Positions 2-30,603 of a stretch of 64,000 nucleotides of DNA are shown here, in pieces; position 1 is the first letter of the stretch, and each line of letters starts with the position of its first letter. The notes under the pieces were generated by a model, which worked only from the letters and a program-made list of their open reading frames with translations, had not been told where the DNA came from and ran no database searches. The translations under genes and the position numbers were made by a program. The stretch spans positions 536 through 64,535 of the forward strand of contig JAZSBE010000060.1 in the NCBI GenBank assembly GCA_045602215.1. Reading direction: 5' to 3'. Source of the stretch: Eubacteriales bacterium (GTDB lineage: Bacteria > Bacillota > Clostridia > Oscillospirales > CAG-272).

Positions 2-1285
2 GTCATCGGACGGGACGGCATTCCCTTTGAGGTGCAGATCCGTACCTGGGAAATGCATCACGTAGCGGAGTACGGTATCGCGGCGCATTGGAAATATAAA
101 TCGGGCGCGACCTCCAAGGAGGAGATGGATCAGAAGCTGGCGTGGATCGCAAGCCTGATCGAGACCGAGGAGGGAACCAAGGACTCCGAGGAGTTCATGG
201 ACGCCCTCAAGACCGACATCTTCCAGGACGAGGTCTTCGTCTTCACGCCTAAGGGAGATGTCATTGCACTTCCAAACGGATCCAACATCATCGACTTTGC
301 TTACGCCGTTCACTCGGCGGTGGGTAACAAGATGATCGGAGGAAAGATCAACGGTATGATCGTGCCGATCGACCGCGTTCTTCAGAACGGAGAGATCATC
401 GAGGTCCTCACGTCCTCCTCCTCGCGCGGTCCCAGCCGAGACTGGCTCAATATCGTCAAAACCTCTTCGGCGCGCGCCAAGATCCGCGCGTGGTTCAAGA
501 AGGAAAAGCGCGGCGACAATATTGCAATGGGACGTGCGGCGATTGAGGGAGAGATCCGTCGGCTGTGCGGAAAGAATATGCCCGGAGAGGCGCAGAGAGA
601 GGAAATTCTGCAGCCCATCAGCACGCGCTTTGGATACAACAGCATCGAGGATTTCTATGCCGCGATCGGTTACGGCGGACTGGCAATGTCCAAGATTCTC
701 AAGCGGCTTCAGGGCGAGTGCGCGAAGTTCATCCGAACCGATGAGGAGGAAACCGCTCCCATTCTGGTGGCAGAGCAGGTGCCGATCAAGCCCCTGCAGA
801 AGCATCAGAGATCCAATGGCGGCGGGGTTGTCGTGGATGGCGAGGCAGGATGCCTTGTGAAGTTTGCAAAGTGCTGCAATCCTCTGCCGGGAGACGAGGT
901 GATCGGCTTTGTGACCAAGGGCTTTGGAATCTCTATTCACAAAATGGATTGCCCGAACGTCAAGCAGGGAAGATTCAATCCCGAATACGTTGACCGCTGG
1001 AAGGCGGCACATTGGGATCTTCCTCACGGCAATGATAATCAAAGTATGTACGAGGCACTTCTGCAGATCCACAGCGACGACCGCATCGGTATGCTGGCGG
1101 ATATCACGGTGGCACTGGCGGATATGCGCGTGTCGATTTTGCAGGTGAACGTGGTCAGCCGAGGCGCGGATGAGGCGATCGTAAATCTGAAGGTCGGATG
1201 TAAGAATATCGATCACTATAACGCCATCGTTTCGAGATTGCGCGGACTCAACGGTGTGAATGACATTCTGCGCGGATTTGCATAA
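2..1285 (+). CDS. relA: RelA/SpoT-family (p)ppGpp synthetase/hydrolase, C-terminal part (5' end outside window)
   Basis: The frame is open to the window edge (..GRDGIPFEVQIRTWEMHHVAEYGIAAHWKYK, end of the synthetase domain). A TGS domain (VFVFTPKGDVIALPNGSNIIDFAYAVHS) and an ACT-like C-terminus follow. dtd comes next, as is usual in Firmicutes. Confidence 0.92.
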   Translation, partial: VIGRDGIPFEVQIRTWEMHHVAEYGIAAHWKYKSGATSKEEMDQKLAWIASLIETEEGTKDSEEFMDALKTDIFQDEVFVFTPKGDVIALPNGSNIIDFAYAVHSAVGNKMIGGKINGMIVPIDRVLQNGEIIEVLTSSSSRGPSRDWLNIVKTSSARAKIRAWFKKEKRGDNIAMGRAAIEGEIRRLCGKNMPGEAQREEILQPISTRFGYNSIEDFYAAIGYGGLAMSKILKRLQGECAKFIRTDEEETAPILVAEQVPIKPLQKHQRSNGGGVVVDGEAGCLVKFAKCCNPLPGDEVIGFVTKGFGISIHKMDCPNVKQGRFNPEYVDRWKAAHWDLPHGNDNQSMYEALLQIHSDDRIGMLADITVALADMRVSILQVNVVSRGADEAIVNLKVGCKNIDHYNAIVSRLRGLNGVNDILRGFA

Positions 1286-1321
1286 CCGTTTGATTGTTTT
1301 ACAGAAGGGAGAGAGCCGACG

Positions 1322-1780
1322 ATGAAGGCGGTGCTTCAAAGAGTTACACACGCAGAGGTTGAGGTGGACGGCAAGACCGTCGGAAGCTGCGGACAGGGAT
1401 TTCTGATCCTGCTTGGCGTCGCGCAGGGCGACACCGAACGGGAGGCGGAGCTTCTATGCAGAAAGATCGTGAATCTTCGTGTGTTTGAGGACGATGCGGG
1501 GAAGATGAACCGTTCGATTCTGGACGTGGACGGCGAGGCACTTGTGATTTCACAGTTTACGCTGATGGCAAACTGCCGACACGGAAACCGTCCCGACTTT
1601 ATGGCATCCGCCAAGCCGGACGTTGCAATCCCTTTGTACGAATATTTTAAGAAATTGGCAGCAGAGAGTATTCGACGTGTTGAATGCGGTATTTTTGGGG
1701 CAGACATGAAGGTCAGTCTCCTCAATGACGGCCCTGTTACCATTGTTTTGGATACCGATACTCTGAAGAAAGAAAAATAA
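1322..1780 (+). CDS. dtd: D-aminoacyl-tRNA deacylase
   Basis: 152 aa. N-terminus MKAVLQRV..A.V.VDGK..G....G.L.LLGV and the SQFTL motif are typical of Dtd. It sits directly downstream of relA. Confidence 0.92.
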   Translation: MKAVLQRVTHAEVEVDGKTVGSCGQGFLILLGVAQGDTEREAELLCRKIVNLRVFEDDAGKMNRSILDVDGEALVISQFTLMANCRHGNRPDFMASAKPDVAIPLYEYFKKLAAESIRRVECGIFGADMKVSLLNDGPVTIVLDTDTLKKEK

Positions 1781-1792
1781 AGGAAGTTTGCC

Positions 1793-3289
1793 ATGAGATT
1801 GATATTGGATGGAAACATCAACATATACTATGTTCAGACCCTTTGCATGATCTTTTTCCCCGGAGCCAAATTTGGGGCAACCGAGCAGGAGGATCCGAGT
1901 GCTCCTGAGCTGCGTCTGACGCTGACCGAGCAGGAGAACGGCATGGAAGCGACGGCGACCCTGACCGTGGACGGCAAGAGTGAGACGGCAACGAAGTTTT
2001 GGGAGTTTTCCGAGCATCATACCAATGAAAAAACGGCAAAGCTTGCTTGCGGCGCGGCAGTCATTGCGGCGTGCGGGTCCTTGCTTGGATACCGTCCCTC
2101 CTGGGGAATGCTGACGGGTGTGCGTCCCTCCAAGGTCGCGACGGAGCTGCTCCAGAGAGGCTGCAGCAAGACCAAGGTCAAGAAGATCCTGACGGCAGAA
2201 TACGGCGTGATCCCCAAGAAGGCATCGCTTGCCACCGACGTGGCGCTCGTGGAGCAGAAGATCATCGGAACGCCCGGAAAACGCGATTGCAGCGTTTATA
2301 TTTCGATCCCGTTTTGTCCGACGCGTTGCACCTATTGCTCCTTCGTTTCCTATACGTCGAAAAAGCTTTTGGATACGCTTCCCGATTATCTGGCACATCT
2401 CGTTGCAGATGTGCGCGCGACCTTTGCTAAGATCCGCGAATTGGGATTGAACGTCAAAACGGTCTATATCGGCGGCGGAACACCCACCATTCTCTCGGCG
2501 GATCAGCTCAGGCTTCTGTTGTCTACCGTCGCGGAGTGTACCGACGTGAGCTTGCTTGAGGAGTACACACTGGAATCGGGCAGAGCAGATACCATCACGG
2601 CAGAGAAATTTGCGGTTGCCAAGGAATACGGCGTTACACGAGTGTGCGTCAACGCGCAGTCTCTTTCGGATGAAGTGCTCCGCAACATCGGCAGAAGCCA
2701 CAATACAGAGGATTTTCTGCGCGCGTTTGAGATTGCAAGGGAATCCGGAATTTCGCAGATCAATACCGATCTGATCGTTGGATTGCCCGGGGATACCTTC
2801 AAGATCTTTTCTGCAGGCTTTGACAAGGTTCTTTCTCTCAGACCCGAAAACGTTACGGTACATACCTTCTGCGTGAAGAAGGCGTCGGAGATCCTGCGGC
2901 AGGACGGTCACGTCTATTCTTTGCGTGGAGGAGATGCAGGAAAGTGTGTGGACTATTCCCAGCTCAAGGCGATTCAGGAGGGCTACAAGCCTTACTATAT
3001 GTACCGTCAGAAGAATACGGTCGGGAACTATGAAAACGTGGGCTTTGCTCTGGAAGGCGCAGAATGTAAGTATAACGTATACATGATGGAGGAAGTGCAT
3101 TCCATTTTCGCGGCAGGCGCGGGCGCGGTTTCCAAGATGGTGAACTACAGTCCCGTCGGTGGCGGAAATCCCGTCATTGAGCGGTTGTTTTATCCCAAGT
3201 ATCCGTATGAGTACCTTCAGGACCAAAGCACCGCCGAAAAGCTGGAGAAGATGGAGCAATTCTACCGTCAACACCAATTGCTGAACTGA
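1793..3289 (+). CDS. Radical SAM protein, HemN/HemZ-like coproporphyrinogen dehydrogenase family
   Basis: 498 aa. CxxxCxxC radical-SAM motif (IPFCPTRCTYCSF), GGGTPT motif (YIGGGTPTIL), and HemN-type length and architecture. Confidence 0.8.
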   Translation: MRLILDGNINIYYVQTLCMIFFPGAKFGATEQEDPSAPELRLTLTEQENGMEATATLTVDGKSETATKFWEFSEHHTNEKTAKLACGAAVIAACGSLLGYRPSWGMLTGVRPSKVATELLQRGCSKTKVKKILTAEYGVIPKKASLATDVALVEQKIIGTPGKRDCSVYISIPFCPTRCTYCSFVSYTSKKLLDTLPDYLAHLVADVRATFAKIRELGLNVKTVYIGGGTPTILSADQLRLLLSTVAECTDVSLLEEYTLESGRADTITAEKFAVAKEYGVTRVCVNAQSLSDEVLRNIGRSHNTEDFLRAFEIARESGISQINTDLIVGLPGDTFKIFSAGFDKVLSLRPENVTVHTFCVKKASEILRQDGHVYSLRGGDAGKCVDYSQLKAIQEGYKPYYMYRQKNTVGNYENVGFALEGAECKYNVYMMEEVHSIFAAGAGAVSKMVNYSPVGGGNPVIERLFYPKYPYEYLQDQSTAEKLEKMEQFYRQHQLLN

Positions 3290-22470: not shown

Positions 22471-23268
22471 ATGAAGATATTGATTAAAATTGCCTATGAC
22501 GGCTCCGCTTATTGCGGATATCAGGTGCAGCCCAACGGTGTGACCGTTCAGCAAAGGCTGAATGAGGCGGCAGAGGCTGTCTTCGGCTATCCCTGCGATA
22601 TCGTTGGGTGCAGCCGTACGGACAGCGGCGTTCATGCGATGGAGTTTTGTGCGACCGTGGCGAAAAAGGGGCAGGAGAATCTGCAGACCTCCATCCCGAT
22701 TGAAAGGATCCCCTTGGCAATGTCCGCCCATCTTCCCGCGGATATCAGCGTTTACGATGCTACGTGGGTGTCGGACGCCTTTCACGCGCGGTATGACGTG
22801 ATGCAAAAGGAATATCTCTATCGCATTTATAACCGCCCCGTTCGCTCTCCCTTTGAGGAGGGGAGATCCTGTCATTTGCCGAAGCGATTTTCAAACGAGG
22901 ATCTTCGGAGAATGCAGGAGGCGGCAAAATGCTTTGTTGGAGAGCATGATTTCACCTCCTACATGGCGCAGGGGTCAAAGATCACCGACTGTGTCAGGAC
23001 GATCACCGAGTCTGAGGTGACGCGTGAGGGGGACGTGATCCTTTACCGCGTTCGCGCAAATGGCTTTTTGTATCATATGGTGCGGATCCTGACGGGAACC
23101 TTGGTCGCGGTTGGCGAGGGAAAGCTTTTCCCTGCTGACATTCCGTCCGTGACCGAAGCAAGAAACAGAGCACTGGCGGGCATTACGATGCCGCCGGAGG
23201 GCTTGTATCTTCACCGTGTGATCTACCCCGAGGACTGCTTGCGCTCGGATTGGGAGGGAAGACCTTGA
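22471..23268 (+). CDS. truA: tRNA pseudouridine(38-40) synthase TruA
   Basis: IAYDGS.Y.GYQ.QPNG.TVQ..L and GCSRTDSGVHA (catalytic Asp). Canonical position after ecfT. Confidence 0.93.
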   Translation: MKILIKIAYDGSAYCGYQVQPNGVTVQQRLNEAAEAVFGYPCDIVGCSRTDSGVHAMEFCATVAKKGQENLQTSIPIERIPLAMSAHLPADISVYDATWVSDAFHARYDVMQKEYLYRIYNRPVRSPFEEGRSCHLPKRFSNEDLRRMQEAAKCFVGEHDFTSYMAQGSKITDCVRTITESEVTREGDVILYRVRANGFLYHMVRILTGTLVAVGEGKLFPADIPSVTEARNRALAGITMPPEGLYLHRVIYPEDCLRSDWEGRP

Positions 23269-24482
23269 AGACGTTTGAAAAGAAAAGGCGGTCATCACAG
23301 AAAACGCCGATTGATCTCTCTGCTCCACAAAATGAGTACTACGAGGCGGTCTCGGAACGGTGCGGGGCAGTTCAGGTCTTCTTGTATCTGATCCTTTTGG
23401 CGTTCGTTGCCGTGTCCTTCCTGATGAATACCGATCTGATCACCTATCAGAATCTCTATTATTTCGTAAAGGATCTTAATGCGGCGACCGAGACGGTGGA
23501 CGTATTGCACACCGATTCGATCAGTTATCCCACCGATACCTCCCAAAGCTTTGCGCTTTACCGCCAAGGGCTTGCGGTGGCGGGGAACACATCCGTTACC
23601 ATTTTCACGGCATCGGGGAGACAGACGGTGAGCCAGAACGTGCAGTATCAGAATCCTGTTGCGGTTGGCACGGGAAAGTATCTGTTGGTCTACGAGCTGG
23701 ACGGAACGTCATATTCCTTGTATAATTCCTATACGCAGATTCATACGGGAAAGACAGAGTCTCCCATTCGCTGTGCGACGATGTCTGATTGCGGAATGTA
23801 CGCCATCGTGACCGAATCGGAGGAATACGCCTCGGTGGTCAGGCTTTACAGCAGAAGCTTTGAGCCCATCAACCAATATCGCTACAACGGATACGTGACC
23901 GACGTTGCGATCAACGCAAAGGGAACCTATCTTTCGGTTCTGATGACCCGCATGGAAAACGGCGCGCTCGTGACGGGCTTGAACGTCTACGAGCCTAAAA
24001 AGGATACCATACACGCGCAGTATGAGATCGGAAACGGACTTGGCGTTCGCTGCGGATTCACCGATTCGGATGTTGTCACGGTTTTGAGCGGAGACGGCGT
24101 TTATTCGGTGTCGGTTGGTGGAAAACTGATTTCGGAATACCGCTTTGAAGGAAAAAATATTAAGGGGTTTGATCTGTCGGATGACGGGTGCGCCGTGGTC
24201 TTGAAAGGAAACGGAAGCATCACCGATCAACAGGTCGTCATCTTCGATAAGAAGGGAAAAATCAAGCATCAGAGCGAGGTTGAGCAAACGGTGCAATCGG
24301 TCGTTGTAAACAACGGAAACGCTTATCTGATGTGTTCCGACGGACTTCTGCGGATTCAGGGCGCAGACGGACATCGGACGTTTGTCAACTGTGTAACGGA
24401 AGGACGCGTCCTTCTTGTAACAAATGAGGGGCGAGCGATGCTTTGCTCGCCGCAAAAGGCTACTTATGAAAACTTTACTTAA
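23265..24482 (+). CDS. Conserved hypothetical membrane-anchored protein (single N-terminal TM, beta-rich extracytoplasmic domain)
   Basis: There is no ATG near the 5' end. The TTG at 23265 lies 8 nt after GGGAGGG and overlaps the truA TGA (cTTGAag). One TM helix (VQVFLYLILLAFVAVSFLM). The remainder is repetitive and beta-strand-like. I recognise no family signature. Confidence 0.55.
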   Translation: MKTFEKKRRSSQKTPIDLSAPQNEYYEAVSERCGAVQVFLYLILLAFVAVSFLMNTDLITYQNLYYFVKDLNAATETVDVLHTDSISYPTDTSQSFALYRQGLAVAGNTSVTIFTASGRQTVSQNVQYQNPVAVGTGKYLLVYELDGTSYSLYNSYTQIHTGKTESPIRCATMSDCGMYAIVTESEEYASVVRLYSRSFEPINQYRYNGYVTDVAINAKGTYLSVLMTRMENGALVTGLNVYEPKKDTIHAQYEIGNGLGVRCGFTDSDVVTVLSGDGVYSVSVGGKLISEYRFEGKNIKGFDLSDDGCAVVLKGNGSITDQQVVIFDKKGKIKHQSEVEQTVQSVVVNNGNAYLMCSDGLLRIQGADGHRTFVNCVTEGRVLLVTNEGRAMLCSPQKATYENFT

Positions 24483-24503
24483 GACTTGAGAGGAGTTGTA
24501 ATT

Positions 24504-25208
24504 ATGCAATTGTTTGACTGGCTGTTTTTGGGATTTGGAATTTTGCTCATCGCGATCTGTGCAAAAAGAGGTTTTTTGCTTACCCTTTTGAAATTCTTCA
24601 AAATGATTCTGTCTGTTCTGGCGGCAAGCCTGCTGGGGAGCAAGGTCGGTGCGTTTTTTGGAGAAAAAATCTTCAATCCGATCATTCGCAAGTCGGTTTA
24701 TGAAACGGTCAACCGTGTTTATGAGAGCACCACAGAGGAGCTTGGCTCAAAGGTGAGCGCAGAAGTTCTTCCCAAGTATCTGCAGACCGACGCAATGCGC
24801 GAGAAATTGGATTCCCTTGAGGGAAGCGGCGAGGAGCTGGTGAACTCAGTGACCGATACCGTTTCCGGCGCAATCTCCTCGGTCGTGTGCGGCATTGTCG
24901 GCTTTGTTCTCACGTTCGTGTTGGCGTTCTTGCTTCTTTCCGTCGTCTATATCGTCATCAAGAACATGAGAAGCTCGTATCAGACCTTTGGCGTTGCAGA
25001 CTCGGTTTGCGGCGGTATTTTGGGCTTTGTTTTTGCGTTTGCTGTGTTGTTGTTCGCAGGCTCGCTCCTCAAGTTCTTCCTTGGCAATCAGCCTCTCTAC
25101 ACAGATTCCACCATCGTAAAATTCTTTGGTGAATCCGACCTGCTTGACTCCCTCAAATTCCTTGATCCCGGAGAAATGCTCAAGAATTTGGCGGAATCAA
25201 AGGTCTGA
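24504..25208 (+). CDS. cvpA: CvpA-family membrane protein
   Basis: MQLFDWLFLGFGILLIAICAKRGFLLTLLKF is a CvpA-like N-terminus, with 4 TM segments. The ATG at 24504 lies 8 nt after GAGAGGAG. Confidence 0.7.
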   Translation: MQLFDWLFLGFGILLIAICAKRGFLLTLLKFFKMILSVLAASLLGSKVGAFFGEKIFNPIIRKSVYETVNRVYESTTEELGSKVSAEVLPKYLQTDAMREKLDSLEGSGEELVNSVTDTVSGAISSVVCGIVGFVLTFVLAFLLLSVVYIVIKNMRSSYQTFGVADSVCGGILGFVFAFAVLLFAGSLLKFFLGNQPLYTDSTIVKFFGESDLLDSLKFLDPGEMLKNLAESKV

Positions 25209-25270: not shown

Positions 25271-27592
25271 ATGACCATGTGTTCAAAGTGCCACAAGCGT
25301 GTGGCAGTCGTTTTTATGACAAAGATGGAGAACGGCGAAAAAACCACCAAGGGCTTTTGCATCAAGTGTGCAAAGGAGTTTGGCGTACCCGTTGACAATA
25401 TCATGGGAAACATGATCGAGCAGCTCGGGATCTCTCCCGAGCAGCTTGAGAGCGCGGAAAATGATCTGATGGCGATGCTTGGGGGAGATGCTAATCTTCC
25501 TTCCGAGTGCGACGACAACGAGGAGGGCGGCGCGCCTGCGATCGATCTTCCGAAGATTTTCCGCGATTCCGGGCTTGTGCAGATGAACGGCGGAAACGTC
25601 GATTCGAGCATCCCTCAGAACGAGAAGACAAAGGATAAGAAAAAGGCAAAGGAAGAAAAGAAGCTGAAGTTTCTGACTACCTATTGCCGCAATTTGACAC
25701 GCTTTGCGCGAGAGGGAAAGCTGGATAACATCATCGGCAGAGACAAGGAATTGGCTCGTGTGATCCAGATCCTTTGCCGCCGTCAGAAGAACAATCCCTG
25801 CCTGATCGGCGAGCCGGGCGTTGGTAAAACCGCTATTGCTGAGGCTCTGGCGATCCGAATTGCGGCGGGAAACGTGCCCTACAAGCTGAAGAACAAGGAG
25901 ATCTACCTTGTGGATATGACGGCTCTGGTTGCAGGAACGCAGTTCCGCGGTCAGTTTGAGTCGCGTATTTTGGGACTTCTCTCTGAGGTTCATGCGGTTG
26001 GAAACGCGATCCTCGTGATTGACGAGGTTCACAACATCGTCGGAACGGGCGAGGCAGAGGGAAGCGTCAATGCTGCAAACATCCTTAAGCCCGCGCTCTC
26101 TCGCGGAGAGGTGCAGGTCATCGGCGCAACCACCCTGACCGAATACCGCAAATATATCGAGAAGGATACGGCGCTTGAGCGCCGCTTCCAGCCTGTGACG
26201 GTTGAGGAGCCGAGCATTGAAGATGCCGTTGAGATGCTGCAGGGCATCAAGCACTATTACGAGGAATACCACGGTGTCGTCATTCCCGATGAGATTTTAA
26301 GACGTACGGTCATTCTCTCGGAGAGATATATTACCGACCGTTTTCTGCCCGACAAGGCGATAGACCTTTTGGATGAGGCGGCGTCCTTCCTCTCGCTTTC
26401 CTCGGCAGAGCTGAACGAGACCTACTCCATTCGTGACCGTCTGCTCGTTCTCAAGGATCAAAGGGAAACGTTGGAAGCAGAGGTGGCAGGCAGTGAGACT
26501 ACGGAGGATCAACGGTACGAGGAGCTTTCCAAGATCCGTTCGGAGGAGCTCCGACTTTCCGCAAAGCTTGACGAGCTGGAGCCGAGAACCCGCGAGATCC
26601 TTTTGACCGAAAATGAGATCGCAAACGTGATCGAGCTTTGGACGGGTGTTCCTGCTACCAGCATTACCGAAAACGAATTTGAAAAGATTGATCAGCTTGA
26701 GGAAAGACTTCGCAGTCGCATTGTCGGTCAGGATCAGGCTGTGAGTGCGGTCGCGCGCGCCATCAAGAGAAACCGCGCGGGAATCTCCTACAAGAGAAAG
26801 CCGGTATCCTTTATTTTTGCAGGTCCTACGGGCGTTGGGAAAACAGAGCTTGTCAAGACGCTCGCAAACGATCTTTTCCATTCTCCCGAGACGCTGATCC
26901 GATTGGATATGTCCGAGTTTATGGAGAAGCATTCGGTTTCCAGAATCATCGGAGCCCCTCCCGGATACGTCGGATACGACGAGGCGGGACAGCTGACCGA
27001 AAAGATCCGTCGCAGACCCTATTCGATCGTGTTGTTTGATGAGATCGAAAAGGCGCACCCCGACGTTCTGAACGTGCTTTTGCAGATCCTCGATGACGGA
27101 AGAATCACTGATGCAAGAGGCAAGACGGTGAATTTTGAGAACACCGTAATCATTATGACCACCAATGCAGGATCGGACAGATCCTCTGCGATGGCGGGAT
27201 TCGCATCCGACGGTCAGAATGCGCGTGAGGCGCAGACCGAAAAGGCGCTCTCGAGCTTTTTGCGTCCCGAATTCCTCAACCGAGTTGACGAGATCATCAC
27301 CTTCCGCGCTTTAACCGAGGAGGATTTTGCCCGCATTGCCGAGATCATGCTTGGCGAATTGCAGATCGCTCTGGGCGAGAAGGGCATCCGCTTGGAGTAT
27401 TCCAAGGAGGCGGCTGCTCTGATTGCCAAAAACTCCTATTCGCAGAAGTTTGGCGCGCGGAATATGCGCCGCTATATTCAGCGTGAGGTGGAGGATCGCT
27501 TGGCGGAGCTGATTATTTCGGATTATCAAAAGAAGTTCACGGTGGCATCGGTAAAGGCAGACGGCGATCGCCTGCAGATTACCTGCCTGTAA
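25271..27592 (+). CDS. clpE: Class I Clp/Hsp100 AAA+ ATPase, ClpE-like (N-terminal C4 zinc ribbon, no Clp_N repeats)
   Basis: Two AAA modules ([15 protein letters not shown] and [17 protein letters not shown]), a coiled-coil middle domain, and N-terminal CSKCHK...x21...CIKCAK. Confidence 0.85.
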
Positions 27593-27598
27593 CAAAAA

Positions 27599-30217
27599 AT
27601 GAAACAAGAAAAAAGAAATTGGCATCGGCTGACGGGGGAGGAAGCCCTCCGTCAGCTTGGAAGCAGCGCGGCGGGGCTCTCCGGCAAGGAGGCAAGCCTT
27701 CGCCTGAAAAGAAGAGGGAGCAATCCATTGTTTGATTTGCCTCAGGGCAAGGCAACCTTGCTCCGAAAACTGCTGACCGATCCCGCACTTCTGACCTTTG
27801 TGCTTGTGCTGGTGTTGACGGCGTGCTTTTCGGAGCTTTTTTCTGCTGTTTCCACGTGTTTGCTTTTTGCAATATGGGGAATCTACATCGTTTGCCATCT
27901 TTTACGCGTTGACCGAGGGCGAGATCTGCTCGGGCTTTGCACGATCCCGACCGTGACGGTGTTGCGGGGAGGAAAAAGACTGACGGTATCTGCCGCGAAC
28001 GTGGTAGTGGGCGACGTGATCCTGCTTCGCACGGGCGACGTCGTGCCCGCAGACTGCAGATTGCTCTCTGCCGCAGATATGAAGGTTCGATTCACCGTTC
28101 CGACCGGAATGGGGGACGGCAGGGAAACCTTGATTCAGGACAAAAAATCGGATACGGTCTACCCATACAACTGCGAGACCGTTACGCCAAACTATGAGAA
28201 TCTCGTTTATGCAGGATCGGAAATCCTGCGCGGATACGGAAGGGCGGTCGCGTTTGCCGTAGGCAAGGAGACGCTTTTGGGTCAAACGGGAGATGTCATG
28301 CGGATGGACAGACTTGAAAAGGATGCGAAGCTCGTTTCAAATTTGCATCCGTATTTCAAGTTTATGGGCATTTTTGTCCTGATGCTGCTCTTTCCGCTTG
28401 GACTGATCGCGCTTTTGGCTTCACCGGAGTCCCAGAGCGGAATGCGCGTGTTCTTGCCGATCTGCGCGTGGGTGGCTTCTGCCTCTGCAATTTTGCCCTA
28501 TTGTTATCTTCAAATTATTACCTACCACGGCGTGAGATCCTTATTTGCGCAAAACAGTGGCGGAAACGGATCGGTTTTGAAATCAACAAAGGCGATCGAT
28601 CAAATTCCGATGCTGACTGACCTCGTTCTGGTCGGTCGGGCGCCGCTTTCTGACGGACAGATCCATTTTGAAGCAGGCTTTTCGGGCGAAGGACTTCTGG
28701 AGGGAGATGCGCTTGCACCGCTCTGTGAAGCATTTTGCCTGTTGGATGATGCCAAACGCAGCTTACCTGATCTCTTTGACGCGCCTCTGCGACGGGAAGA
28801 GCCATATCTTCGGGAGCTGGTCACGGCGTGCGAATTTGACAGAGAAGCCCTGAAGCTCCGCACGAAGAAATGCGAGCTTTTCCGAGGCAAGCAGGAGCAG
28901 ATCCTTGACGTTGAGAGCACGAGCGGATCTTTCAGACTGCGCTTTTACCATACCGCGGCATCTCTATTTGGATGTGGAGACTATTTGAAGCAGAGCGGTG
29001 AGCGAGCGACCTTGGACAGCCGTGTGCGATCGGAATATCAAAGCTTTGTATCAGAGGCGTTTCGCCTTGGCAGACGAGTCGTAACCGTTGTAAAGGAAGT
29101 GCGGGGGCAGGTATTCCTTGTGGGATGCCTTGTCGGAAAGGAGGGCTTCCTGCCAAACGTCGGCAGAACGGTTTCGGAGCTTGAGCGCAAGGGCGTTCGT
29201 GTTAGCTTATTTTTGAAGGACAACTCGGCCACCGATCGCGCCTATGCCGATGCGTGGATGCCCGATGCAAAAAAGACCTTTGCGTCGGATGGGAGCCACC
29301 TTTCCGATTTGGATCATTCGTCAGAGGTCTTCTTCGGATATTCCGGACGGGAGATTGCAGAATATATTCGCAGATTGAAGAAAAAAGGCAGAGTGGTTGG
29401 CGTCATGACCGCCGAGGCCGATTGCCGTCCCTTGCTCTCCTGCGCCTCGGTTTCGGTGGCGTGCGAGCGTTATTCGGGCTCTCCCGAGGAATCGGAATGT
29501 ATTCCTGTGTTGAGACGCGAGGCGGACGCTCTCGTTGCCAGAGCCTCGGAGCGAGGCGGGGGACTTGGATCGGTTGCATACGCGATTGACGTTCTTCGCG
29601 CAACCGCCGTCAAAGTGAAGGCGTTCTTTGCGTGCTTTTTTGCGCTCAGAATCCTGCAAACCGCATGTTTGGTGCTTTCTTTGGTGAGCGGAATAGGGGC
29701 GATTCCGCCGTTTGCCCTCGTTGGCGTGACTTTTCTTGCCGACTGCGTTTTGCTGGCGCAGGTCTTGCGAGCGTCAAATTGCTCCGAGAAAACAGGTTTT
29801 GCCGCCTTCGTCGATCTTCAAAATCCCATAGCCTTTTTCCGATCTAAACGCCTGTGGCTAAGTACAGTCATTTTCGCCGCAGGACTGATCCCGATCGTCG
29901 CAATCCTCTATCATATCGGGGTATTGTCGCTCGGAAACGGCTACGCATTGATCCTTTTGGGAATGCTCACCTCGGAAATCTTATTCATTTTGAAGGGCGT
30001 TCGCGGAGGAAGACTCGGAAAAACGGGTGTGATCCGCTTGTCTCTCTTTATATTTCCGATGCTTTTGATTCTTTTGCTGTCAGCCTTGATTCCGACGGTT
30101 GGCACTTTGGCGGAGCTCGGCGGATGGAGCTTGGCAGGAGTTGCGATTCTGCCGGCGATCCCTCTGCTCGGAATCGTGTCGCTCCTCTTTGCAAAAAAAG
30201 AAGATTGCGGAAACTAA
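27599..30217 (+). CDS. P-type (P2-like) cation ATPase homologue lacking all catalytic signatures
   Basis: - Cation_ATPase_N-like start (WHRLTGEEALRQLGSSAAGLSGKEASLRLKRRGSNPL).
- A-domain scaffold (VTVLRGGKRLTVSAANVVVGDVILLRTGDVVPADCRLL; NLVYAGSEILRGYGRAVAFAVGKETLLGQ).
- About 10 TM segments.
- DKTGT, TGES, PEGL, DPPR and GDGxND are all replaced.
- The ORF is intact at 872 aa. Confidence 0.75.
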   Translation: MKQEKRNWHRLTGEEALRQLGSSAAGLSGKEASLRLKRRGSNPLFDLPQGKATLLRKLLTDPALLTFVLVLVLTACFSELFSAVSTCLLFAIWGIYIVCHLLRVDRGRDLLGLCTIPTVTVLRGGKRLTVSAANVVVGDVILLRTGDVVPADCRLLSAADMKVRFTVPTGMGDGRETLIQDKKSDTVYPYNCETVTPNYENLVYAGSEILRGYGRAVAFAVGKETLLGQTGDVMRMDRLEKDAKLVSNLHPYFKFMGIFVLMLLFPLGLIALLASPESQSGMRVFLPICAWVASASAILPYCYLQIITYHGVRSLFAQNSGGNGSVLKSTKAIDQIPMLTDLVLVGRAPLSDGQIHFEAGFSGEGLLEGDALAPLCEAFCLLDDAKRSLPDLFDAPLRREEPYLRELVTACEFDREALKLRTKKCELFRGKQEQILDVESTSGSFRLRFYHTAASLFGCGDYLKQSGERATLDSRVRSEYQSFVSEAFRLGRRVVTVVKEVRGQVFLVGCLVGKEGFLPNVGRTVSELERKGVRVSLFLKDNSATDRAYADAWMPDAKKTFASDGSHLSDLDHSSEVFFGYSGREIAEYIRRLKKKGRVVGVMTAEADCRPLLSCASVSVACERYSGSPEESECIPVLRREADALVARASERGGGLGSVAYAIDVLRATAVKVKAFFACFFALRILQTACLVLSLVSGIGAIPPFALVGVTFLADCVLLAQVLRASNCSEKTGFAAFVDLQNPIAFFRSKRLWLSTVIFAAGLIPIVAILYHIGVLSLGNGYALILLGMLTSEILFILKGVRGGRLGKTGVIRLSLFIFPMLLILLLSALIPTVGTLAELGGWSLAGVAILPAIPLLGIVSLLFAKKEDCGN

Positions 30218-30266: not shown

Positions 30267-30563
30267 ATGAAACGATACAGTACCTCGGAGCTTCGATGCT
30301 TGGAAATTGTGAATACCTGCGACGGGGCAAAGCTCGGACGCGCGTCGGATTTTGAATTTGAGGCGGACGGCGATTGCACGAAGATCACCGCGCTCATTAT
30401 TCGCGGGAGAGGCGGGATCTTCGGCTTTGGATGCGAGGAGGATCTTCGGATCCCATGGTGCAACGTGCGGTGCATCGGAGAGGATATTATTTTGGTTGAA
30501 TTGTCCACGCAGGACTGTGATTGCTGCTGCCGACCGAGAAAACGGTTCGGCAGAAGATTCTAA
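30267..30563 (+). CDS. ylmC: YlmC/YmxH-family sporulation protein (PRC-barrel)
   Basis: 98 aa. LRCLEIVNTCDGAKLGRASDFEFE......ALIIRGRGGIFGFG.EEDL.IPW..V.CIGEDIILVE is typical of YlmC/YmxH. Confidence 0.85.
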   Translation: MKRYSTSELRCLEIVNTCDGAKLGRASDFEFEADGDCTKITALIIRGRGGIFGFGCEEDLRIPWCNVRCIGEDIILVELSTQDCDCCCRPRKRFGRRF

Positions 30564-30566
30564 AAA

Positions 30567-30603
30567 AGAGCGGGTGTGTTTCCAAGTGAAACACACCCGC
30601 TCT
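30567..30603. terminator. Bidirectional terminator between ylmC and glnS
   Basis: agagcgggtgtgtttc (30567-82), 5-nt loop, gaaacacacccgctct (30588-603), with an A-run and a T-rich flank. Confidence 0.7.

Follow-up and report, generated by a model that had tools for sequence, protein, structure and literature searches.

A catalytically dead P2-type ATPase homologue encoded in tandem with a ClpE-like unfoldase in uncultured gut Clostridia

The protein described here is encoded at positions 27599-30217 of a 64,000-nucleotide stretch of contig JAZSBE010000060.1 (hereafter the window), which belongs to the genome of a Eubacteriales bacterium of the GTDB lineage Clostridia; Oscillospirales; CAG-272 (assembly GCA_045602215.1). 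Unless noted otherwise, the genes and protein features of the window discussed below lie on the plus strand. The gene codes for a homologue of P2-type cation ATPases of 872 amino acids, which is referred to here as the pseudo-pump and was analyzed by Pfam and phmmer searches, sequence alignments, AlphaFold2 modelling, Foldseek comparison and the ratio of nonsynonymous to synonymous substitution rates (dN/dS). An original prediction, made from the sequence of the window without database searches, had described the reading frame as intact, and it contains indeed no internal stop codon. Directly upstream lies a gene for a ClpE-like class-I Clp/Hsp100 unfoldase of 773 amino acids with two AAA+ modules (25271-27592; Pfam AAA, AAA_lid_9, AAA_2 and ClpB_D2-small), whose stop codon occupies positions 27590-27592. 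The stop codon of the clp gene and the start codon of the pseudo-pump gene are separated by the six nucleotides CAAAAA (27593-27598), which agrees with the earlier description of a 6-nucleotide gap lacking a Shine-Dalgarno sequence. The pseudo-pump is a non-catalytic protein with the fold of a P-type ATPase, which is under selection and is encoded in tandem with a ClpE-like gene.

The signature motifs were assigned by a MAFFT alignment with four active ATPases, by a BLASTP comparison with the genome's own canonical P2 ATPase and by comparison of the folds. Both alignments agree, and every one of the motifs is replaced, as had been proposed. At the position of the phosphorylated aspartate of DKTGT, the protein has Gly346 (GGT, 28634-28636, exactly as predicted) within the string LVLVGRAPLSD (28622-28654); in the alignments, CSDKTGTLTQN is matched by LVGRAPLSDGQ. 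The TGES motif of the actuator (A) domain is replaced by TGMG (residues 169-172, 28103-28114; MAFFT and BLASTP pairing), which is part of the TGMGDG string correctly located at 28103-28120. In the M4 segment, ILPYCY (28490-28507) takes the place of IPEGLP, thereby changing the ion-binding glutamate to isoleucine. DPPR or DPVRP is paired with EGFL(P) by BLASTP (29141-29152), MITGD is replaced by LFLKD (29207-29221; MITGDH to LFLKDN in BLASTP), and the hinge motif TGDGVNDAPAL by TAEADCRPLL. All peptide strings quoted in the original prediction were found in the protein; the position given for the last one, however, was 3 to 6 nucleotides off, as it lies at 29408-29437 and not at 29405-29431. KGAPE and the equivalent of Lys684 are likewise lost. 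The tetrapeptide DKTG occurs nowhere in the protein, and neither the alignments nor the fold comparison place a misaligned aspartate or DKTGT motif at the phosphorylation site. None of the catalytic hallmarks of a P-type ATPase, namely the aspartate of DKTGT, TGES and motifs II to IV of the haloacid dehalogenase (HAD) superfamily, is therefore present in the pseudo-pump. The canonical ion ligands, which by SERCA numbering are the glutamate of PEGL in M4, an asparagine and a glutamate in M5 and an asparagine, a threonine and an aspartate in M6, are replaced in five of six cases: only the M6 aspartate (D715) survives, which is largely retained in the family, and the M5 asparagine and glutamate are an arginine and a glutamine in the window protein. 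With five of the six calcium-site ligands replaced and an arginine in M5, canonical ion binding is unlikely. As judged from its sequence, the pseudo-pump is predicted to be incapable of forming or dephosphorylating an aspartyl-phosphate, of binding Mg-ATP in the canonical manner and of coordinating a cation at the canonical M4/M5/M6 site.

The loss of the motifs is a feature of the whole family. DKTG was found neither in 64 related loci nor in 89 further representatives, and GDGxND is also missing from these 89 proteins; a DKTGT-like motif is seen in none of about 140 family members. The decay is graded: deeper clades retain LTG in place of TGES, the M4 glutamate and a PK(D/E)G.IT motif with a proline at the aspartate position, and remnants of TGD are seen as CDD or TDG; the TGES site is variable across the family. 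The series ends in clades where nothing of this is left, and it provides a natural experiment on the importance of the individual parts of the fold once catalysis is lost. It could be argued that the protein is still an enzyme, which uses unconventional residues such as Asp352 of an SDGxxH motif as an alternative nucleophile. D352 is conserved in 85% of the family, and D414, D643 and G654-G655 are conserved inside the subfamily of the window protein. In the model, however, D352 is located in the strand leading to the N (nucleotide-binding) domain and not at the end of the first strand of the phosphorylation (P) domain, which is the position of the HAD nucleophile. The threonine of TGD, the Lys684 equivalent, both aspartates of GDGxND, the lysine of KGAPE and the glutamate of TGES are all replaced, and the deeper clades carry a proline at the aspartate position, so that we regard an unconventional enzyme as very improbable.

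In contrast to the catalytic residues, the architecture of the pump is preserved. Pfam profiles recognize only Cation_ATPase_N (residues 8-44) and E1-E2_ATPase (PF00122, residues 116-278, 5.5e-21), and no match was obtained for Hydrolase, Cation_ATPase or Cation_ATPase_C in the same search. The score against NCBIfam TIGR01494 is 28.4 bits and falls below the cut-off of 62.3, and a phmmer search against PDB sequences detected the Listeria Ca-ATPase LMCA1 (2.4e-17), MgtA, SPCA1 and SERCA over residues 9-308 only. An AlphaFold2 model built from 25 family sequences has a predicted local distance difference test score (pLDDT) of 84.3 and a predicted template modelling score (pTM) of 0.83, and contains ten membrane helices, as had been estimated. 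A Foldseek search with this model gave whole-chain alignments of approximately 930 columns, at 14-16% identity, for SPCA1, MgtA, SERCA, Na,K-ATPase and LMCA1, with E-values of around 1e-32 and TM-scores of 0.6-0.68. The whole-chain alignment indicates that the P and N domains persist as folds that are invisible to sequence methods. A, P and N domains and a ten-helix membrane domain are thus all present in the model, and together with the N-terminal Pfam matches this confirms the resemblance to P2-type ATPases over the full length that had been proposed by eye. By descent and predicted fold, the pseudo-pump is a P2-type (Ca/Mg-pump-like) ATPase with a complete architecture, which includes the N-terminal helices. 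The actuator barrel, which corresponds to the E1-E2_ATPase match (27944-28432), is the best conserved part throughout the family, with 22 of 127 positions conserved to at least 80% in 142 sequences. Further along the chain, residues 316-655 (28544-29563) make up P- and N-like cytoplasmic domains that are degenerate but have kept their fold, as seen from the secondary structure of the model and from Foldseek, and residues 656-872 (29564-30214; model helices and alignment) make up transmembrane helices (TM) 5 to 10, which are the least constrained part.

The original prediction further held that the gene is maintained rather than decaying. The dN/dS of the pseudo-pump gene is 0.128 in comparison with a relative at 94% identity (dS 0.26), 0.117 with a relative at 82% identity (dS 0.92) and 0.127 with one at 76% identity. 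These values are far from neutral and, together with open frames in relatives, support maintenance; an elevated dN/dS, which had been named as a possible refutation, was thus not observed. For comparison, values of 0.01-0.06 were obtained for the clp gene, 0.01-0.05 for GlnRS and GluRS and 0.09-0.13 for the DUF5711 and CvpA genes located further upstream. Within the pseudo-pump, the A barrel (0.04-0.11) and the N-like domain (0.05-0.07) are most constrained and TM5-10 (0.14-0.22) least; the degenerate P/N-like region (residues 316-655) ranges from 0.05 to 0.31, and every domain remains below 0.4. The frame is open in 17 of 17 matches in the genomes of relatives and in all 14 Clp-adjacent copies of a sample of the order, which are of full length except for the copy of genome G171, which is cut at 684 amino acids by the end of its contig. 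The alternative of a decaying pseudogene, whose frame is still open by chance, could point to the fact that the pseudo-pump evolves about ten times faster than the adjoining clp gene. It does not account, however, for a dN/dS of 0.12, for the confident structure prediction or for the approximately 100 representatives of 815-945 amino acids with a common architecture. It is refuted by the dN/dS values and the conservation of the open frame, and we assign it practically no probability.

A word-indexed search retrieved, at 24-93% identity, about 30 clusters in which the two N-terminal Pfam domains are the only ones present. When residues 320-660 were used in an exhaustive phmmer search against 1.84 billion representative proteins, exactly 100 hits were obtained (E up to 1e-3), nearly all of which are near-full-length proteins of about 815-945 amino acids matched at the same position. 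The family thus comprises approximately 100 clusters at 50% identity among the 1.84 billion representatives. In a maximum-likelihood tree (LG+C20 with posterior mean site frequencies, quick search), a single branch with 100% support in the Shimodaira-Hasegawa-like approximate likelihood ratio test (SH-aLRT) separates 32 dead from 21 active ATPases, the latter including archaeal and diverse bacterial proteins. This topology fits a single origin of the family from an active pump, with long-branch attraction as a possible alternative cause of the split. The carriers are uncultured gut Clostridia; in the named genome collection, every carrier that was found is a metagenome-assembled genome.

The position behind the clp gene is nearly invariant. 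In a scan of 185,579 species genomes, combined with individually examined loci, 64 distinct loci without DKTG had 700 or more nucleotides of sequence upstream, and in 63 of them a gene for a zinc-ribbon Clp protein is located directly upstream of the pseudo-pump gene; the corresponding number for DKTG-bearing control loci is 0 of 35. A lack of linkage among homologues had been named as a further possible refutation, and the comparison speaks clearly against it. The distance between the clp stop codon and the start codon of the pseudo-pump ranges from -4 to 100 nucleotides, with a median of 15.5. In several lineages, the two genes overlap in ATGA or TGATG, and many others possess their own AAGGAG sequence, so that the missing Shine-Dalgarno sequence of the window is a local trait, which is compatible with termination-reinitiation. 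Five contigs were inspected individually and showed the order DUF5711 - CvpA - Clp - pseudo-pump, which is usually followed by a small PRC-barrel gene. The junction between clp and the pseudo-pump gene is kept while different genes follow downstream (glnS/gltX, rpsB-tsf, pfl and others), and the adjacency persists down to approximately 20% identity. No terminator-like site was found at the junction in the window, where the only strong hairpin follows the downstream gene ylmC. The suggestion that both genes are co-transcribed thus receives its support from comparison, namely from the gaps of -4 to 100 nucleotides, the overlaps and the lack of a terminator at the junction, and from these we infer co-transcription. 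In the genome of the window, the pseudo-pump is probably also translationally coupled to Clp.

The upstream gene product has the features of ClpE from Bacillus and Lactococcus, that is a zinc ribbon in place of the Clp_N domain, which is absent, two AAA+ modules and a loop with an x-G-F tripeptide resembling the ClpP loop. The C4 zinc ribbon (25280-25369; Cys4, Cys7, Cys30 and Cys33 in MTMCSKCH...FCIKCAKEF) matches an McsA profile over residues 3-38, and the CxxC...CxxC pattern, which is CxxC-x22-CxxC in the window, is found in 61 of 61 Clp orthologues. The Walker motifs are intact in both AAA+ modules (GEPGVGKT and GPTGVGKT, with DEIEKA present). An A-G-F tripeptide in the second module (residues 642-644, 27194-27202) is a putative ClpP-docking loop; 61 of 61 orthologues share x-G-F in a loop that varies in its other positions, and a role in docking is presumed here by analogy with ClpA, ClpC and ClpX. 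ClpP itself is encoded elsewhere in the genome, adjoining ClpX. From its motifs, the Clp protein looks active and ClpP-coupled. Since the genome also encodes a canonical ClpC, which carries Clp_N repeats and a UVR motif, as well as a canonical P2 pump of 882 amino acids with all five Pfam domains, the Clp protein and the pseudo-pump are a pair of additional paralogues.

Two membrane proteins are encoded upstream of clp in the window: a membrane-anchored, beta-rich DUF5711 protein (23250-24482; PF18975, 2.6e-27) and a CvpA-like (Colicin_V production) membrane protein (24486-25208; PF02674, 6.2e-12), which is syntenic in related loci. Nearly all of the 60 genomes sampled, which come from 30 families, have the conserved block DUF5711 - (CvpA) - Clp. 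In this order, genes for membrane proteins thus habitually accompany the ClpE-like gene, irrespective of the pseudo-pump. A search of the literature on DUF5711 returned nothing relevant.

The interpretation that we favor, tentatively and at somewhat less than an even chance, is that the pseudo-pump acts at the membrane together with the ClpE-like unfoldase, as an anchor, an adaptor or a gate for substrates. As a non-catalytic membrane partner of ClpE, or of ClpE-ClpP, its cytoplasmic headpiece would provide a surface for docking or regulation, thereby bringing ClpE(-ClpP) to the membrane or presenting membrane-associated substrates, while the energy would be supplied by the Clp motor. Such a partnership fits three observations: the headpiece is the most constrained part of the pseudo-pump, the junction with clp is constant while the downstream neighbors change, and the clp gene is embedded among genes for membrane proteins throughout the order. 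If it exists, ClpE, a Clp paralogue about which little is understood, would gain a partner, and the near-obligate position behind the ClpE-like gene offers a testable hypothesis for how a soluble Clp machine could be directed to the membrane.

Several findings weigh against this partnership. The positions conserved throughout the family belong for the most part to the A domain's structural core, which is common to active pumps. At one locus (L046), the only one lacking an upstream clp gene, a different open reading frame (ORF) of 560 amino acids (188-1870, plus strand) precedes the pseudo-pump; this ORF, from a metagenome-assembled genome of goat-colon Clostridia, has no Pfam match. A zinc-ribbon Clp orthologue was detected in 140 of 151 sampled genomes, covering all 30 families of the order, and the pseudo-pump follows it only in families f1, f8 and f17, so that 27 of the 30 sampled families have the Clp orthologue and no pseudo-pump. 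In a Clp tree (quick search), all 15 pump-linked Clp proteins fall into one clade of 22 members (98% SH-aLRT), the remaining 7 of which are pump-free; the shared clade points to one gain and about four losses of the pseudo-pump. No residue or indel was found that separates pump-linked from pump-free Clp orthologues, and, as the DUF5711-CvpA-Clp block is syntenic throughout the order, the linkage may in part reflect an inherited arrangement of the genes. Further-decayed pumps behind clp in other families were also considered and rejected, since the large ORFs at this position were found to be unrelated when their sequences were read; they encode, among others, a polytopic membrane protein, an S9-peptidase-like and a glycoside-phosphorylase-like protein. 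The proposed partnership is tempered by the facts that Clp is mostly pump-free in this order and that no feature of Clp tracks the pseudo-pump. The dependence is thus one-way, and the pseudo-pump is probably an accessory of the Clp machine and not a requirement.

These findings lend themselves to the main alternative, in which the pseudo-pump has an independent function in the membrane and shares only its regulation or operon with Clp. It might then be a sensor of cations or of the state of the membrane, a passive route for ions, a structural membrane protein or a regulatory subunit pairing with the cell's own active P2 pump, and its position in the clp operon would be explained by a common stress or developmental regulon or by inherited gene order. 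We consider this alternative a serious one, albeit clearly on the doubtful side. It would account for a Clp protein that is unchanged where the pseudo-pump is absent, for the roughly four losses and for the syntenic block upstream of clp; moreover, canonical P2 ATPases are present in every carrier checked, the MgtA dimer of E. coli is among the best structural matches, and the M6 aspartate is largely retained. Dead paralogues commonly regulate their active relatives, which provides a precedent among pseudoenzymes. An independent function is countered, however, by the adjacency to clp, which is kept in 63 of the 64 loci, at identities as low as about 20% and despite changing downstream neighbors, and by the overlap of stop and start codons in several lineages. 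The pseudo-pump gene was never found adjoining a gene for an active pump, and the replacement of five of six calcium-site ligands, along with the arginine in M5 of the window protein, makes canonical ion binding unlikely.

The C-terminus of the pseudo-pump is of note in the context of Clp recognition. R-T-[AGST]-K, typically as FFHRTAK-COOH, ends the sequence of 37 of 112 representatives of the family (e.g., P0026, P0030, L005 and L006) and of none of 85 active pumps; the window protein, which ends in AKKEDCGN (30194-30217), and its close relatives also lack it. This subclade-specific tail may be a cytoplasmic recognition tag and is a lead for recognition by Clp. One could accordingly imagine that the pseudo-pump is a dedicated substrate or timer of ClpE-ClpP, whose controlled extraction or degradation functions as a switch. 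The strict one-way dependence on Clp and the distribution of the tail between the family and active pumps would be in line with this idea; its absence from the window protein and close relatives is not, and a protein of 870 amino acids with ten TM helices and a constrained headpiece would be uneconomical as a mere target of degradation. We judge this role to be improbable. Still unlikely, but slightly less so, is a special form of the proposed partnership, in which the pseudo-pump would be an intramembrane platform or lateral gate that hands over membrane proteins or membrane-bound targets to ClpE-ClpP, by analogy with Derlin and p97. ClpE would then be a protease for membrane-protein quality control or remodelling in these Clostridia, by extraction and degradation. 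Derlins and iRhoms are rhomboid proteases that have lost their activity and cooperate with the AAA+ unfoldase p97/Cdc48 in endoplasmic-reticulum-associated degradation. The likeness is one of concept, a dead membrane enzyme serving as a platform for an AAA+ protein, whereas fold and domain of life are unrelated, and cooperation on the side of the pseudo-pump is suggested by gene linkage alone.

Partners of Clp ATPases are often encoded beside them, as in the ctsR-mcsA-mcsB-clpC operon or in the case of MecA. To our knowledge, however, neither a polytopic membrane protein nor a homologue of P-type ATPases has been described in any ClpE or ClpC operon. In line with this, targeted literature searches for a ClpE or ClpC operon containing a P-type ATPase homologue found none, and searches for a bacterial pseudo-P-type ATPase were equally negative, which upholds the earlier remark that such a system was not familiar from the literature. 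By sequence and fold, the nearest relatives of the pseudo-pump are the bacterial P2A Ca-ATPases. With LMCA1 (PDB 6zhf/9euq), and likewise with SPCA1, SERCA and MgtA, it shares the whole-chain fold, the order of the domains and the ten TM helices, whereas DKTGT, TGES, PEGL, DPPR, TGD, KGAPE, GDGxND and most ion ligands are replaced; furthermore, P2A Ca2+-ATPases stand alone, while the pseudo-pump is encoded behind a clp gene. A P-type module that presumably serves another enzyme is known from the guanylate cyclases of alveolates and stramenopiles (P4GC), which retain a P4-ATPase module with an altered DKTGT or LDGET in some cases (Cryptosporidium, P4GC-beta), and the module is predicted to be structurally intact despite a changed phospho-aspartate or A-domain glutamate (PMC13466520). 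GC-alpha, on the other hand, requires its aspartate (PMC7858053). These proteins are eukaryotic, of the P4 (flippase) type and fused in cis to the cyclase, and a loss of activity is not established there; the pseudo-pump, in contrast, is a stand-alone bacterial P2-type protein beside an AAA+ unfoldase. TMEM94/ERMA likewise has a P-type-ATPase-like fold, but is eukaryotic and has an unrelated sequence context; whether it is a real P-type pump is disputed (against, PMC12134183; for, PMC13322241), whereas the loss of motifs in the pseudo-pump is unambiguous. Pseudo-pumps are not mentioned in a recent review that deals with open questions on P-type ATPases (PMC10654040). Few membrane enzymes have been studied as well as the P-type ATPases, and yet pseudo-enzyme versions are hardly known and none was found described for bacteria. 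The long retention of the full architecture without any catalytic residue indicates that the P-type fold has a second, non-pumping use.

Some further observations concern individual parts of both proteins. In the degenerate P domain of P0016 and P0020 (L003 and L022), the ..ACD.. strand is separated from the R.AD motif by an insert of 60-150 amino acids rich in Gly, Ala and Thr (columns 740-850 of alignment A1); inserts of this size show that a surface loop of this domain tolerates large additions. Residues 1-140 of Clp (25271-25690) contain, behind the zinc ribbon, three features common to all orthologues: a short helix-like MGIS.E(E/D)L segment, an acidic stretch with a conserved G(R/G)(A/T)P(A/S)(I/L/F)D(L/F/I) motif behind it, and a lysine-rich linker before the first AAA+ module. 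From these motifs, this region looks like an uncharacterized N-terminal module of this ClpE-like lineage. On the nucleotide level, synonymous divergence in the first approximately 113 codons of the pseudo-pump gene (27599-27937) is three to five times lower than in the rest of the gene in three close comparisons (0.06-0.07 vs. about 0.29, 0.25-0.40 vs. about 1.0 and 0.42-0.58 vs. 0.9-2.2). An antisense gene was considered as the cause and rejected, as the antisense ORF at 27311-27898 is of odd composition, is disrupted in L021 and L003 and does not resemble a conserved gene.

Two more specialized roles were also dropped. A function in anti-phage defense was rejected, since none of the PADLOC models matches the pseudo-pump, the CvpA-like protein, DUF5711 or YlmC. 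The genome of the window likely belongs to a spore-former, as it encodes Spo0A and SpoIVA. SpoIVA is present, however, in five of five members of the clade that lack the pseudo-pump and missing from the complete pump-bearing genome G045, and the adjacency of ylmC is not universal; a role specific to sporulation was discarded because neither SpoIVA nor ylmC correlates with the pseudo-pump. In families f8 and f17, ylmC was not detected beside the pseudo-pump gene, whereas it follows it in the clade of the window and in some distant clades. In the window, it encodes a PRC-barrel protein of the YlmC/YmxH family with 98 amino acids (30267-30563; NCBIfam TIGR02888, 61.9 bits at a cut-off of 44.2) and is the last co-directional gene. 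Between ylmC and the convergent glnS lies a hairpin with a perfect 16-bp stem (30567-30603), which is a candidate for a bidirectional terminator: it is followed by a T-run on the minus strand, where it would act as a terminator, and it closes the Clp-pseudo-pump-ylmC block on the plus strand.

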